Below are positions 1 to 38,234 of a stretch of DNA of 38,234 nt, piece by piece. The notes beneath the pieces were generated by a model. That model saw only the letters and a program-made list of their open reading frames with translations. It was not told the DNA's origin and ran no database searches. Each line of letters opens with the position of its first letter. Position 1 is the stretch's first letter. This DNA comes from a virus (taxonomy: Duplodnaviria; Caudoviricetes). Position numbers and translations under genes: made by a program. Location: IMG/VR virus record IMGVR_UViG_3300032225_001651, positions 1 to 38,234 of that record. The stretch is one strand, 5' to 3'.

Positions 1-88
1 GTTGCCTGCATCTGATTTGTTCTGCCTCAAATTACCCAAGACTATGCCACTCAGAATCACAATAGAACTCATCCCTCGCGGCGACGAA
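1..88 (+). repeat. Terminal direct repeat, left copy (circularisation overlap)
   Basis: gttgcctgcatctg...ctcgcggcgacgaa identical to 38147-38234. Confidence 0.95.
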
Positions 89-370
89 TCGCGCAAACGG
101 AAGCTCGCCGTCGTTGATGTCGAGAATGATGGAACGGCTGGCGACGGTCGCGGCAACGGTGAAGTCGGCAACTACCGAGTTGAAGCCGCTGGAGACTGCG
201 GTGAAGCGGGATGGGACGACTTCGCGGCCTTCACCATCGGCCCTCTCCCGCGAGGAAACTACATCGACACTTGCGCCGAAGTGATGACCGCTCTGCACTC
301 GGCTCATTGCCCGCCCCCAGGATCTCGCATCGCAGGGCAGAACGTCAAAAATCAGGCACGCGACAAATGA
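44..370 (+). CDS. Hypothetical protein, ORF of integron-like cassette 1
   Basis: ATG at 44 within track ORF 2..370; lies between GTTCTGCC (19-26) and GGCAGAAC (336-343); C-terminus reads into the attC-like arm. Confidence 0.75.
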   Translation: MPLRITIELIPRGDESRKRKLAVVDVENDGTAGDGRGNGEVGNYRVEAAGDCGEAGWDDFAAFTIGPLPRGNYIDTCAEVMTALHSAHCPPPGSRIAGQNVKNQARDK

Positions 371-422
371 CGCCATTTCCCCCCATTGCTAGGCCGCGTT
401 GCCTGCATTTTTCTTGTTAGCC
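337..422 (-). other. attC-like recombination site B (86 bp)
   Basis: Minus strand: R'' GGCTAAC, AAGAAAA, L'' ATGCAGGC, AACGCG ... CGCGT, L' GCCTGAT, TTTTGAC, R' GTTCTGC; imperfect inverted repeat with two extra bases on the L'' arm. Confidence 0.8.
367..420 (+). CDS. 17-aa mini-ORF crossing the attC-like arm (MTPFPPIARPRCLHFSC)
   Basis: ATGA overlap with stop of 44..370; TAG stop lies in the GTTAG box. Confidence 0.35.
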   Translation: MTPFPPIARPRCLHFSC

Positions 423-452
423 CTTCCCTGAACTTCCAACCAACCTAAAGCC

Positions 453-701
453 ATGAAAATAAAAGCGACACAATCATACGAAAAGGAAAGAGACGAAACC
501 ATTACGCAATACGTCGAACGCTGCCTTGACGGTAGCGACTACGACAGCGGACAATTAGAGACAATTGCTCGAACTGGTGGCAACAATAGCCGCGCAATCA
601 GCAGGCTGATCGAAGTCCTCGCATCAAAAGGACTGCTTACGGCTCCTGAAATCACTGGCATCGTTGGCTGTGAAAACTTGCAGGCAAAATTCTTGTGCTA
701 A
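453..701 (+). CDS. Hypothetical protein, ORF of integron-like cassette 2
   Basis: 82-aa ORF between GTTAGCC (416-422) and GGCGAAC (742-748). Confidence 0.75.
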   Translation: MKIKATQSYEKERDETITQYVERCLDGSDYDSGQLETIARTGGNNSRAISRLIEVLASKGLLTAPEITGIVGCENLQAKFLC

Positions 702-741
702 ATCTGGCGTTTTGGAATCACGGGCGCAAACTGTTCGGAAT

Positions 742-761
742 GGCGAACAAAGCATTATCTG
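742..761 (-). other. attI-like simple site bounding the cassette array
   Basis: Minus strand CAGATAAT-GCTTT-GTTCGCC: L box, 5-bp spacer, GTT R box; same geometry as attI1 (CCCTAAA-ACAAA-GTT). Confidence 0.6.
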
Positions 762-802
762 ATTCATATGAGAATTAGGCGAAGATTAGCATCTTTGCAG
801 AT

Positions 803-27385: not shown

Positions 27386-27605
27386 CCCGCATCTTTGCAG
27401 GGTGCTTTCCTCCTATCTGCTTGCGTCTATAGGCGCGTGAACGCTCGCGATGTTTCTGCAACGCTTTGGGTGTGATGCGCTCGGCAAAGAACTCTTTCTT
27501 CCTGCGTAGAACCTTCTTCCTAAAAGTGGGGTTCTTTGCGTGGTAGTGGTTTCGATACCATTCCCGCTGATAGGCTCGCTTGGCCTCAAGATCAATTGGC
27601 GTCAT
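27363..27605 (-). CDS. Small basic hypothetical protein
   Basis: 80 aa, KRAYQREWY, Arg/Lys-rich; overlaps the integrase 3' end. Confidence 0.55.
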   Translation of the reverse strand: MTPIDLEAKRAYQREWYRNHYHAKNPTFRKKVLRRKKEFFAERITPKALQKHRERSRAYRRKQIGGKHPAKMRASRSIPK

Positions 27606-28710
27606 CGCTCAGATAATGGTTACTGGTCGTTGTCGTCGTCGTGTGTCCTAGCGCCTTGGATGCTTCCTTTACGCCAGCAAGCCGCGCCGTGATTGCATCC
27701 TCAGTCAATTCAGCCAAGTGGTCGGCGTAGAGTCCGCGCAATCGTTGCAAGGGTTTCTGCACGCTCGGCATGAATGGCTTGAGCCACTTCTGAGGCTCGA
27801 ACGCAAACCAGCGTTCGCGACTCTCCCACACGGGCAAGACAAACAGTTCATCTTTGGGTGTCGCTTTGAGTTGGCGCGCTAGCTCGGGGTCTAGGATTGT
27901 GGCGCGATAGCTGCGTCCTGTCTTCGTGAGAAAGTCCTCCTCTGGCCTGTCCCGTAGCTCGACGACTGGCTTGCCTCGGTGCTCTGCATACCATCCGCCA
28001 CGTAGCGCCATGATTTCGCTACGGCGCAAGCCAGCAAAGCGAGCCGTCGCTAGTGTTCGCCAATCGGGAAGCGTGCGCGGATTAGTCGCCAGCGATTGAA
28101 TTGTTTCTAGGATCTCCGATTGATCCAGTTCAGCGGGCGGACGTCTGACAACGGGCAACCAATGAATGTCACAAGCGTCTTCTGGAATAATGATTCCTTC
28201 TTCCTTGTAGAGCGGGCGCAATCGCTTGATGAAGATCGAGGCCGCGCAACGGACAGCGGTATTGATTGAGGCATTGCCTAGCCTGCGCTTTGCAAGATCG
28301 AGTTTCCCGCCTTGGCGTTTGGTCATAAACTCCCGCCATAGCTTCGGGCCTATCGCATCAATGCGAACGTCTTTTAGATCGCGGCCCCATGCTTCCCTTA
28401 CGATGCACTTGAGCCACATCACATTCAAATCTTCGGCCTTCTGGCCTGCTCGCTTGGGCATGACACGATAGAACTCCACAACATCGGCGAGCGTGCGATA
28501 GCAGGGCAGCGTGGTTTTCTGCGCTGCTTGCTCAAGATGCTGACGTGCCAATACTTTAGCCACGTCTAGACTAGCCGTTCCCGTTCTAAAGTTCACCGTC
28601 CTGCCCTTCGCCCTGGATCGTAGACGCCATGTTCCATTGTCCAAGGCGAGCGGGTATTTGATGCCGTTGTGAACCAACGAGGCAATTTGGGGCAATTTTG
28701 GGGCGCGCAT
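27592..28710 (-). CDS. int: Tyrosine integrase
   Basis: AGLRRSEI (R), TKT (K), QRLR (variant HxxR), LGH...NHY (H, Y); adjacent to a tRNA-derived attP. Confidence 0.9.
   Translation of the reverse strand: MRAPKLPQIASLVHNGIKYPLALDNGTWRLRSRAKGRTVNFRTGTASLDVAKVLARQHLEQAAQKTTLPCYRTLADVVEFYRVMPKRAGQKAEDLNVMWLKCIVREAWGRDLKDVRIDAIGPKLWREFMTKRQGGKLDLAKRRLGNASINTAVRCAASIFIKRLRPLYKEEGIIIPEDACDIHWLPVVRRPPAELDQSEILETIQSLATNPRTLPDWRTLATARFAGLRRSEIMALRGGWYAEHRGKPVVELRDRPEEDFLTKTGRSYRATILDPELARQLKATPKDELFVLPVWESRERWFAFEPQKWLKPFMPSVQKPLQRLRGLYADHLAELTEDAITARLAGVKEASKALGHTTTTTTSNHYLSDDAN
28686..28706 (+). repeat. Integrase arm-type sites, left pair
   Basis: TTTGGGGCAA (28686) and TTTGGGGCGC (28697). Confidence 0.65.
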
Positions 28711-33955: not shown

Positions 33956-35710
33956 ATGACTGCTACCCTCCAGACTGTCCACGATATAGCCGCGCCCGTG
34001 CCGTTGCCTTCGCCTATGGTTCTCCCGCCATTGCGAGACAGGTTTATTGTCGGTCTGGCGGGTAAGTTCCGCGAATGTCCCGTTCCTCTTTCGGTAGAAT
34101 GGATGTTTAAACCGCTTTGGAATAAGAACCGCACCGACTTCATAGAACGCGGCTTTGCGCTTCGCTCGCATAATGACAGGTGGTTCTTGCAACAGTGGCT
34201 GTTGCCCGATGGCAAGGGCTACACGCTGACCCCAATAGGACAGGAACGCTTAGAAGTCCTACAGGGGCCGCGTGACTCGGCGCTTTCGGCTGCTCCTGAG
34301 CCTGAAACGCAACTTGATCTTCCTTCGCTGCCTATGGGCTTGGAAGAAAAGCTCTTTGATTATCAAGTCCAACCAGCACGCCAGCTACTCAACGCGCTGA
34401 CGACTGGCGCGGATGAGTGGAATTATCCAGGCGCTTGGGACTGTTCCGCGCTCGGCACGGGCAAGACTTATCAGGCGTTAGCCGCTGCCATCGGGACAGG
34501 GTTAGAGGTCGGTGTGATTTGTCCGTTGTCGGTGATTCCAGCTTGGAAAAATGCTTTCAAACATTTTGGCGAGGTTCCGCGCTTCATCCGCAACTATGAA
34601 TCTCTCCGCACTGGCAACCGTGACTATGTGAAGCTCGAGCAATACCGCGATAAACGCACGGGCCACGCGGGACGGCGTTTTAACTGGACGGTATCGCCAA
34701 CGGATACGGTTTTGCTTTTTGATGAGGCTCACATGGTCAAAGGTGGAACGACGAAAAACGCGGCGCTCGCTATCGCTGCCATTCGCCAACGGTTCCCCCT
34801 TATCTTCATTTCTGGCACGCTCGCCAGTGACCCTACGCACATGAGAGCGACTGGCCGCGCCGTTGGGCTGCATGAAGGCGGCGAGAGCTACAATCGTTTC
34901 TTGTTAGAGCATGGGTGCGAGCAAAGTCCAAACCGTGGAATGACATTTATAGGCGGAAAGAAAGGGCGTTTCTACCTCACGCGGATTCATTTGAAGGTAT
35001 TTCCAAAGCGGGGCGCTCGAACACGGATTGAGGACTTAGGAGATAGATTTCCTGAGACGCAAATCATGGTGGAAGCTTACGAGACTGGCGAGACGGCAGC
35101 TATCAACAAGGCTTTCAAGGTCGCTGCTCAAACCATTGAGAATCTGACAAAGCAGGGCATGAGTGAAGGGCAAGCCAAGATGCTTTCGCAGACAGCATGG
35201 ATGAAGGCTTTTCACGAATCCGAACGGCTCAAGGTGCCAGCAATTTGTGAGAAGGTGCAAGAGGAACTTGAGGAAGGGCGCTCCGTAGTCGTCTTCGTAA
35301 ACTTTACCGATGTGCGCGAAGCTTTGATGACCAAGTTAAAGACGCAATGCGCCATCTATGGCGGTCAACATGCCTTGCAGCGTGAACAAGCTATTGCTGA
35401 CTTCCAAGCAGACAAGGCGCGTGTGATTGTCGCCAATATCGACGCGGGCGGGGTCGGTGTGTCTCTCCATGATTTAAACGGGGATTATCCGCGAACTGCT
35501 ATCATCATGCCAACGTGTAAGGTGGTAAGTATTACACAAGCTCTAGGCCGTGTGCATCGGGCAGGCGGTAAAACCAAGTCACGCCAGATAGTTTTCTACT
35601 CCACAGGATTCGAGGAAACAATCTGTCAAAACATCCGGCGAAAAGTCGGAAATCTCACCGCGCTGAATGACGGCGAGATGATGCCAGTCACTCACTTTGA
35701 CCAAGTATAA
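33956..35710 (+). CDS. SF2 (SNF2-like) helicase
   Basis: LFDYQ, LGTGKT, FDEAH, ISGT, AGGVGVSL, QALGRVHRAG. Confidence 0.92.
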   Translation: MTATLQTVHDIAAPVPLPSPMVLPPLRDRFIVGLAGKFRECPVPLSVEWMFKPLWNKNRTDFIERGFALRSHNDRWFLQQWLLPDGKGYTLTPIGQERLEVLQGPRDSALSAAPEPETQLDLPSLPMGLEEKLFDYQVQPARQLLNALTTGADEWNYPGAWDCSALGTGKTYQALAAAIGTGLEVGVICPLSVIPAWKNAFKHFGEVPRFIRNYESLRTGNRDYVKLEQYRDKRTGHAGRRFNWTVSPTDTVLLFDEAHMVKGGTTKNAALAIAAIRQRFPLIFISGTLASDPTHMRATGRAVGLHEGGESYNRFLLEHGCEQSPNRGMTFIGGKKGRFYLTRIHLKVFPKRGARTRIEDLGDRFPETQIMVEAYETGETAAINKAFKVAAQTIENLTKQGMSEGQAKMLSQTAWMKAFHESERLKVPAICEKVQEELEEGRSVVVFVNFTDVREALMTKLKTQCAIYGGQHALQREQAIADFQADKARVIVANIDAGGVGVSLHDLNGDYPRTAIIMPTCKVVSITQALGRVHRAGGKTKSRQIVFYSTGFEETICQNIRRKVGNLTALNDGEMMPVTHFDQV

Positions 35711-36632: not shown

Positions 36633-37349
36633 ATGAACGTTATCACTCTCACCCCTGAAGAATTGGCTGGCATTATCGCTAATGCCGTGGCTATCGCTTT
36701 GTCTTCGCGTGACAAAAAGAGCACAGGAGCAGAGCGACAAGCACGTTACAGAGAGCGTCACAAAGCGTCACAAACCGTAACAGGTGCCGCGAGTGCCGCA
36801 AGTGACGCGAGTGACGTAACAAGTGACGCTTGTGACGCGAGTGCCGCGAGTGCCGCAAGTGACGCGAGTGCCGCGAGTGCCGCGAGTGCCGCAAGTGACG
36901 CGAGTGACGTAACAAGTGACGCTTGTGACGTAACAGTGACGCCTAAACCCTCCCCCTCGCCCCCTCCCTCCTCCTCTCTCCCCAAACCCCTCTCTCCTCC
37001 GCCCACCCCCGCACCCCCACCCGCACAACGCGCGAGCGCACCCGTGCGTAAGGAGCCACAGAAAAACCTCATTCCTGAGACTTTTGATCCTCAAGCCGTT
37101 GAAGCGCTGCAACGTTGGGAAGCCTACAAAAAGCAGCGAGGAGAGACTTACAAGCCAATGGGATGGGAAGCGCTTTTGAAGCAGTTAAGCGCCTACCCAA
37201 CCGTTACAATCGTCCATGCAATCGACAATTCGATGAGGTCCAACTACGCCGGGCTTTTCCCCGAAAAAATCAACCAAAGAAACGGCAAACCAGCGCCGAA
37301 ACCGCAACAACCAAACATCCTTGAAGGAATGAAAGTTTTTAAATTATGA
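36633..37349 (+). CDS. Replication initiator (lambda O-like) with internal iterons
   Basis: TGAERQARYRERHK, repeat linker, Pro-rich stretch, C-terminal W.AYKKQR...NYAGLF; precedes a DnaC-like gene; ATG 36633. Confidence 0.75.
   Translation: MNVITLTPEELAGIIANAVAIALSSRDKKSTGAERQARYRERHKASQTVTGAASAASDASDVTSDACDASAASAASDASAASAASAASDASDVTSDACDVTVTPKPSPSPPPSSSLPKPLSPPPTPAPPPAQRASAPVRKEPQKNLIPETFDPQAVEALQRWEAYKKQRGETYKPMGWEALLKQLSAYPTVTIVHAIDNSMRSNYAGLFPEKINQRNGKPAPKPQQPNILEGMKVFKL
36784..36943 (+). repeat. Tandem iteron-like array, 17 GTG(A/C)CG units; probable replication origin
   Basis: 9-mers gtgccgcga, gtgccgcaa, gtgacgcga, gtgacgctt and 11-12-mers gtgacgtaaca(a); inverted gcgtcac copies upstream. 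Confidence 0.85.
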
Positions 37350-38074
37350 TTGATACCAAATCACAAGTTGAGTGCCTCTGCGCTACCTGCAACCAGACCT
37401 TCTACGACGAGGCTATGTCTATCGGTGGCAGGGTAATCAAGCCTAACCAATGCGAAGCCTGCGAGATAGGCGAGAAAGGCAAAGCTACGGCCAAGAATGC
37501 GCGTCCAGTGATCGAGCTAGGCGAGGACTGGCCGGAACGTCAGAAAGGAGCCATAGCAAACCGCAAAGGACAGGCGCTAGAGGTTGCGGGAATGTTTTGG
37601 TCGAAGATGGTTTGCAAAGGTCAAGCGACGATCATTCTGTTTGGCGACAGGGGGCGGGGTAAAACGTGGATAGCCTGCTATTGGGCTTACCTTCGCGGGC
37701 AAGCTGGGGATGATACGGGGATGTATCGCACGGCCTATGACTTCTTTCTTGAGATACGGCAAGCTTGGCGTCAGACATCCAAGGTTTCAGAACGTGAGGC
37801 AATGTTGCCCTATCGCAACACTCCGTTTCTTGTTTTAGATCAGCTTCACCAATGCCGCGCCCTTGATGCTAGTGGCGGTGACAAGGCAGCAATGTGGGAA
37901 CGCATGGCGCTTGCTGACTTACTCGACTATCGGTATCGCGAGCAACTTCTCACGGTGTTGATTGTAACGCTGCCAACCATTGAGGAGGTAGCCGAAGTGA
38001 TTGACGCTGACATTTGGGAGCGCGTGAAAGAGTCTGGCGGGCTTGTGGCCTGTAATTGGGAAAGTTACAGATAA
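37346..38074 (+). CDS. DnaC/IstB-like AAA+ helicase loader
   Basis: CxxC...CxxC, Walker A GDRGRGKT, Walker B FLVLDQL, LLDYRY, ends WESYR. Confidence 0.85.
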   Translation: MIDTKSQVECLCATCNQTFYDEAMSIGGRVIKPNQCEACEIGEKGKATAKNARPVIELGEDWPERQKGAIANRKGQALEVAGMFWSKMVCKGQATIILFGDRGRGKTWIACYWAYLRGQAGDDTGMYRTAYDFFLEIRQAWRQTSKVSEREAMLPYRNTPFLVLDQLHQCRALDASGGDKAAMWERMALADLLDYRYREQLLTVLIVTLPTIEEVAEVIDADIWERVKESGGLVACNWESYR

Positions 38075-38171
38075 CGTCTTGGATCAGACAACCGCGTTAG
38101 CGAACCCATGAAGACGAATACTGAGAAAACTCATAGAGCCAAGGGGGTTGCCTGCATCTGATTTGTTCTGC
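38069..38171 (-). other. attC-like recombination site A (103 bp, spans the circular junction)
   Basis: Minus strand: R'' GCAGAAC, AAATCAG, L'' ATGCAGGC, AACC ... GGTT, L' GTCTGAT, CCAAGAC, R' GTTATCT; shares ATGCAGGCAAC with site B. Confidence 0.75.
38108..38161 (+). CDS. 17-aa mini-ORF crossing the attC-like arm (MKTNTEKTHRAKGVACI)
   Basis: ATG in the attC loop, TGA in the distal arm; parallels 367..420. Confidence 0.3.
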   Translation: MKTNTEKTHRAKGVACI

Positions 38172-38234
38172 CTCAAATTACCCAAGACTATGCCACTCAG
38201 AATCACAATAGAACTCATCCCTCGCGGCGACGAA
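38147..38234 (+). repeat. Terminal direct repeat, right copy
   Basis: Identical to 1-88. Confidence 0.95.

Follow-up and report, generated by a model that had tools for sequence, protein, structure and literature searches.

A probable array of integron-type cassettes in mirror layout in front of the terminase genes of a temperate tailed phage

The window, i.e., the whole stretch of 38,234 nucleotides that was analysed, represents a 38-kb temperate tailed phage, whose gene content was assigned by profile search. In gene order it encodes the terminase subunits TerS and TerL, a portal-type adaptor, capsid genes, a tyrosine integrase, Erf, exonuclease VIII, a helicase, RusA, a lambda O-like initiator, and DnaC. 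The cassette array is located between dnaC and terS: the gene for the DnaC-like loader (37346–38074, + strand) ends with a TAA stop that overlaps the AAC of the first hairpin, and the terminase small subunit gene terS (849–1217, + strand) is the first gene after the array. Within the initiator gene, 9-nt-unit repeats at 36784–36930 mark a candidate origin, as judged from the repeats only. These iterons had been placed about 1.1 kb upstream in an earlier note, which is right for hairpin A, lying 1143 nt further on, but not for position 19, to which the distance is about 1905 nt. A cultured phage relative with a terL identity above 60% was not found. The host is probably a member of the Verrucomicrobiota, as read from the label of the attC family, since six of the nine genome loci with a full attC site carry this label. 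A 12-nt motif recurs at 832, 2864, 6692, 22319, and 35610, where it precedes terS, the 2883 ORF, a capsid gene, and a tail gene, and it is possibly a late-gene signal.

The genome was scanned on both strands with a structural pattern consisting of AAC, 6 nt, a 7-nt box, an inner stem, an 8-nt box with one bulge, 5–6 nt, and GTT; applied to attC2 of phage TJE1 as a control, the scanner called the strand that had been published as the bottom one. Two attC-like hairpins were found in the whole genome, and in both of them the + strand reads as the bottom strand. Hairpin B (attC B, 337–422, 86 bp) scored 13 of 13 over 341–418, and hairpin A (attC A, 38069–38171, + strand, 103 bp), the first hairpin of the array and of the same polarity, scored 11 over 38073–38167. 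As 20 Markov-shuffled genomes gave seven sites at 10.5, four at 11, and none higher, B is beyond chance and A by its score alone is not, whereby A is backed by the family alignment. Hairpin B comprises AAC 341–343, inside which the crossover is predicted, a 6-nt spacer, L′ at 350–356, a bulged T at 399 and a bulged C at 406, which are six pairs apart and both on the 3′ arm of the + strand, a further 6-nt spacer, and GTT 416–418. The inverted R′/R″ and L′/L″ boxes, the AAC/GTT pair, and the 5–6-nt spacers of attC sites are thus present, with R′ of B differing from RYYYAAC at two positions. The last extrahelical base of B is the T, separated by a 6-bp stem from the other one, and A shows a single bulge, the C. 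The first extrahelical base is a C and not the usual G, as it is in 17 of 17 bacterial sites scored, and this is not disqualifying because the published anatomy states only that G is usual. In 17 aligned sites, 99.5% of 204 cells are paired and one pair covaries, so that covariation support is thin. Rfam gave no match. A third attC was sought at 742–830 and at 670–740 and was rejected, as neither region has an attC fold.

The edges of the units can be read from their flanks. Positions 19–25 are the exact reverse complement of 337–343 (7/7), and 416–422 matches 742–748 at six of seven positions, compared to 4/7 inside each hairpin. Positions 19 and 748, between which the cassettes had been placed, are therefore true unit edges. 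Flank complementarity is symmetric under both polarities, for which reason it was used for unit edges only and not as a test of polarity.

Cassette 1 is headed by the 3′ arm of a hairpin at 1–25 (+ strand; L″ 5–12, bulged C9, 6-nt spacer, GTT 19–21) and carries ORF1 (44–370, + strand), which encodes a conserved phage protein of an unnamed family, 108 aa long from ATG 44, and runs through the AAC into hairpin B. The predicted structure has four strands and a helix (pLDDT 82); it matched nothing in PDB and BFVD at E ≤ 0.001 and nothing in the Atlas. Over 50 codons and nine homologues, the ORF1 frame shows 207 synonymous versus 75 non-synonymous differences, a codon pattern that indicates purifying selection. 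The minus ORF at 32–376 is an in-register antisense shadow of ORF1. It was rejected as a real gene: it has no PHROG or Pfam match, its frame, with 16 synonymous versus 266 non-synonymous codon differences, is not under selection, and a stop interrupts it in 4 of 10 homologues. Its expression in place of ORF1, which had been named as an outcome that would overturn the reversed reading, is thus not indicated. Cassette 2 is headed by hairpin B and carries ORF2 (453–701, + strand; 82 aa), which belongs to no family, has four homologues at 52–76%, and gave a poor model (pLDDT 54; Atlas matches below 0.9). Loci with ORF2 were not found in viral contigs, and the mobility of cassette 2 therefore rests on its flanks and hairpin family. 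An adjacent hairpin is missing from 15 of 32 ORF1 homologues (read by eye), which suggests that ordinary phage genes get recruited into cassettes. Reversed units in the loci L139, L141, L048, L150, and L152 often hold DNA methyltransferase-like genes, as judged from translations.

The first 88 nt of the window (1–88), comprising the attC arm and the first 15 codons of ORF1, are the second copy of a repeat that is also found at 38147–38234. The record calls it a direct terminal repeat, but it is an internal repeat that collapsed in the assembly. The 88 nt form a unitig of their own at a depth of 327 in run X1, from which the record possibly stems, with neighbours at 178–206, and a separate 642-nt unitig at genome depth joins 59–88 to 1–30; unitig depth and the linking unitig together rule out a circular closure of the genome at the repeat. 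Because the 642-nt unitig links the end of the repeat back to its start, the assembly lacks about 582 nt ahead of position 1; the arm at 1–25 is hence part of a third hairpin, whose 5′ arm falls into this gap. The sum 38146 + 670 + 55 = 38871, with an assumed 55-nt overlap, equals the size of the other contig holding ORF2, and this 38,871-nt contig together with the equal depth favours a tandem unit rather than a separate circle. A metagenome scan did not recover the missing piece, of which 30 letters were seen; by eye, 24 of the 25 letters before position 1 match the loop of the sites in a host integron (L134, see below), as do 19 of 21 letters of the arm at 1–25 with these sites. The missing stretch is too short to hold an intI gene and is probably one more cassette, opening with the same 15 codons as ORF1; hairpin A heads this third unit, the gene of which lies mostly within the missing piece. 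The array then probably runs from hairpin A and the unit in the gap to the hairpin with its last position at 25, and on through ORF1, hairpin B, and ORF2 to the end site. Cassette repeats of this kind can make genomes look complete and circular when they are not. A contig of run X1 (depth 6.2) matches hairpin A over 38073–38158 from its AAC and then diverges, and a contig of run X2 (depth 3.2) matches the ORF2 tail over 702–748 up to the AAC ending at 748 and then diverges; these low-depth contigs may be weak extra signs of the same unit edges.

No hairpin starts at 742–748, where one had been expected. The region 742–762 (+ strand) instead consists of AAC 746–748, 5 nt, and an ATTAT box, and appears to be an attI-like insertion site at the end of the array and not an attC. 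Positions 744–762 match L004 over 19 nt, and the end site has 19 nt in common with an exchange point in other phages. Of four viral matches to the end site, one is unrelated, and the other three close off reversed units ahead of a terminase-like gene. In L075, a similar site stands where an ORF1 homologue ends, and the AAC-5 nt-ATTAT layout also precedes phage IntI-like genes. By itself, the short attI-like motif lacks specificity, as it has five copies in the window, and 742–762 does not match host attI-like sites beyond the AAC.

The bulges of B and of the arm at 1–25 lie on the + strand, which also codes for ORF1 and ORF2, so that the cassette ORFs are inverted relative to attC polarity, as the earlier note had claimed. 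In textbook integrons, gene direction is tied to attC polarity and to Pc, and a cassette has its gene on the top strand, followed by attC; here the gene is on the bottom strand, after the hairpin. In a survey of ORF1 homologues, sites scoring at least 11 are present in 20 of 32 ORF1-oriented loci, and 59 of 59 sites are on the coding strand. Around terL, sites were found in 5 of 19 loci, with 10/10 on the coding strand. These counts include several near-duplicate loci, and a few score-11 matches may be due to chance; L005, L011 (truncated), L014, and L015 have no scored site, and L013 is a duplicate of L009. In a crude test by the longest ORF, 35 intervals from viruses, metagenomes, and prophage-like regions gave the reversed layout in 26 cases, and six bacterial intervals gave the canonical one in five, whereby one of the misses is a tie at an ORF1 homologue. 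The viral contig L001 (329–3821) holds two hairpin sets of opposite polarity that face each other, with genes mostly on their own bottom strand.

The same hairpins are found the other way round in bacterial DNA. Host integron L134 combines an intI gene and an attI-like site with five attC sites of B's family, which have the C bulge and the 6-nt spacer, and its genes sit on the strand opposite the bulged strand, which is the canonical layout. The intI of L134 (10886–12794) has an in-frame TGA, due to either a pseudogene or a sequence error. The arm pattern gave 52 genome matches, of which 43 without a 5′ arm were left out; in the nine with a full site, the neighbouring ORFs are on the opposite strand in seven, on the same strand in one (L048, which has phage-like genes), and unclear in one. 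Overall, comparison of these loci supports the reversed polarity well. The suggested phage class of reverse cassettes distinct from the host pool stands in part: the layout recurs in phage DNA, but the hairpins belong to the host-integron family and appear not to be distinct from the host pool, with gene direction and cargo alone being different.

Exchange among related phages follows the same polarity. L139 and L002 provide two contexts for one 449-nt unit, which opens with a B-family hairpin, is 100% identical between the two, and has both of its edges at a + strand GAAC. Past the end site, L139, L140, and L141 agree at 99%, and L140 departs directly ahead of it: compared to L139, it is 99.8% identical from the end-site AAC on and unrelated before it. 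In L002, a B-family hairpin follows the last unit of L140. Among six ORF1 loci (15 pairs), identity is 0.53–0.89 in the upstream hairpin and 0.52–0.93 in the last 60 nt of the ORF, versus 0.37–0.52 before the upstream AAC and 0.39–0.54 after the downstream AAC. P0038, a protein from the 90% cluster of ORF1, diverges right past the Asn codon that is AAC 341–343. Because the upstream hairpin is conserved and the sequence past the downstream AAC is not, the upstream hairpin travels with the gene, which is what a bottom-strand crossover on + predicts. Units of the ORF1 family and of the B family thus occur in different contexts and are bounded at the core triplet, and near-identical phages differ, as their alignments indicate, by whole hairpin-plus-gene units that start at a + strand AAC. 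Since the natural exchange points are at the + strand AAC, the minus strand does not appear to be the recombinogenic one.

An intI gene is not present in the window, and no intI stands beside the array as in a complete integron; with at least two attC sites within a few kb and no intI, the array is a CALIN. The only integrase of the phage, a divergent tyrosine integrase (27592–28710, − strand), has a PHROG match but no NCBIfam match, and family searches led to its rejection as an IntI. Genes for IntI-like proteins that contain the IntI insertion are present in six phage loci (one is the contig of the search query itself, and two are identical). They follow a conserved AAC site at a distance of about 45 nt, with hairpins of the same polarity upstream in 5/6, and the protein scored 180 bits, which is below the family cut-off of 265. 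The loci L150–L155 (G010 C1, 28094–28885) represent a clade of phage IntI-like proteins that are 71–80% alike and encoded in the same direction as reversed cassettes; L152 and L153 differ just upstream of the conserved AAC site, and L093 has a similar site.

Phage attC arrays have been published before. Phage CALINs and the activity of IntI1 on them were reported by Qi, Rajabal, Ghaly, Tetu, and Gillings (2023; PMC9892861), and the part of that paper considered here terms the layouts of TJE1 and PH101 typical and does not discuss the gene strand versus the bottom strand. The TJE1 array is canonical, so phage arrays are not all reversed. In PH101 (KR534323, phage H101; L148, 25500–28400), the listed bottom strands are on the coding strand and the start codon is behind the hairpin, and IntI1 recombined these bottom strands better than the top strands (PMC9892861), where we take the forward oligo to be the bottom strand on account of the table heading and the aadA7 control. 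Our scanner at 11.5 missed the short PH101 sites, which were located by motif. attC1 of P12002L is also on the coding strand and did not recombine in the assay of PMC9892861. A literature search, with most subscription journals outside it, found no paper on reversed phage cassettes, though PH101 shows the layout; in the portion considered, bioRxiv 10.1101/2022.02.06.479319 treats intI orientation only.

The array shares with the phage CALINs of PMC9892861 at least two attC sites in a phage without intI, but it has an attI-like end, and its relatives show unit exchange. From the sedentary chromosomal integrons of Verrucomicrobiota (L134), which have the same attC family with C bulge, 6-nt spacer, and loop, it differs in layout: the host genes occupy the top strand and run away from intI/attI, whereas those of the phage occupy the bottom strand, run toward the attI-like site, and have no intI. 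With the canonical IntI/attC system it has in common the R and L boxes, the AAC, the T bulge, a 6-bp stem between the bulges, and a length within the published attC range of 57–141 bp (PMC5027507; PMC5371416); the first bulge is here a C and usually a G (PMC5027507). Accidental top-strand insertion (PMC5027507) was rejected as a source of the layout, as it inverts the whole cassette, gene and hairpin together, and here the gene is inverted relative to the hairpin. Self-promoted, oppositely oriented cassettes such as those for toxin-antitoxin systems have genes antisense to attC polarity. They are exceptions inside canonical arrays, whereas here every unit is reversed.

The array appears to work like an integron array, being neither a canonical cassette array nor a complete integron, and we consider it probable that it consists of integron-type cassettes in mirror layout, ends in front of the terminase genes at an attI-like site, and is moved by an outside integron integrase. 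An IntI of the host, probably one of the Verrucomicrobiota, or of a co-infecting phage would cut the folded + strand between A and C, excise hairpin-plus-gene circles, and insert them at 746–748. Transcription of the rightward early operon may run on into the cassette genes as its tail. As genes of an operon tail, they would need no Pc, and new units would land promoter-distal, which is the reverse of the bacterial integron. The genes point to the attI-like end and are not driven from the attI side as by a Pc, so that any read-through enters from the attI-distal side, in agreement with the earlier note; a minus-strand promoter-like match was not found in 1–1300. The lagging template promotes folding of attC, and the bottom strand is on the leading template in 25 of 30 chromosomal integrons (PMC5027507; PMC5371416); here it would be lagging. 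Because the genes are co-oriented with a rightward fork, the coding and recombining strand would automatically be on the lagging template, which would favour its folding, and the geometry of the + strand fits this. Reversal would then combine co-orientation with easy excision, provided that the origin is where the repeats suggest. Transcription probably restarts with terS, before which a promoter-like match at 803–832 is at chance level for the region.

It is unlikely that the hairpins are integron relics and that the units are swapped by homologous recombination of the phage at shared arms and not by IntI. This explanation would fit a phage that encodes Erf and exonuclease VIII and no intI, and also the 88-nt duplication, which covers an arm plus a gene start and is not accounted for by site-specific recombination alone. 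However, the edges in related phages share only about 4–9 nt and are at AAC even where the neighbouring hairpins differ, and in 41 pairs the flank match across the gene is 3.49 of 4, versus 1.85 within the hairpin, as circular intermediates predict. Recombination as in the preferred reading could also act on genes that are self-promoted or largely silent, with the link to the lagging strand being incidental. Against this, gene packing between 29935 and 38074 is dense, the gaps ranging from −47 to 94 nt, and ORF1 is under purifying selection. Furthermore, no sigma70-like + strand site was found before ORF1 or ORF2 in the sequence scanned, outside of which the missing piece lies. In favour of such genes, a terminator-like match is located within hairpin B (+390–405), which is at chance level, as is the second one at +34336–34354; moreover, the origin is deduced from repeats only, and the fork direction of a prophage depends on the host. 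Taken together, we regard this variant as improbable.

Very improbable is a canonical polarity, in which the minus strand recombines and + is the top strand, or a reading with the minus ORF as the true gene. It is indeed usual for the top strand to show a bulged C, as the coding strand does here, and the minimum free energies of the two strands are close (−15.3 versus −16.6). On the other side, the bulges are on the 3′ arm with a conserved T and are 6 bp apart, the host integron uses the hairpin family the other way round, the gene moves with its upstream hairpin and not with the downstream one, and the minus frame is not selected.

In the preferred reading of mirror-layout cassettes moved by an outside integrase, polarity would separate cargo pools that share sites, because host cassettes in the phage and phage cassettes in the host would be antisense and silent. 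A more far-reaching model, which we put forward tentatively and rate somewhat below an even chance, is that a mirror-image integron operates in temperate Verrucomicrobiota phages: attI would be at the end of the early operon, cassettes would be formed from phage genes on the recombining strand, a phage-specific IntI clade would serve integrase-less phages such as this one in trans, polarity would act as a lock on cross-expression between host and phage, and lytic replication would expose the recombining strand. A reversed phage class would imply two cargo pools kept apart by orientation, and phages that keep the recombination chemistry with a flipped gene would have a site-specific route to accessory-gene mosaicism. 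The weight of the window itself is limited because it is a small instance, with two or three units, cargo without assigned function, and no integrase. With one hairpin family present in either layout, short oligos would suffice for testing strand bias, the function of attI, and cross-expression.
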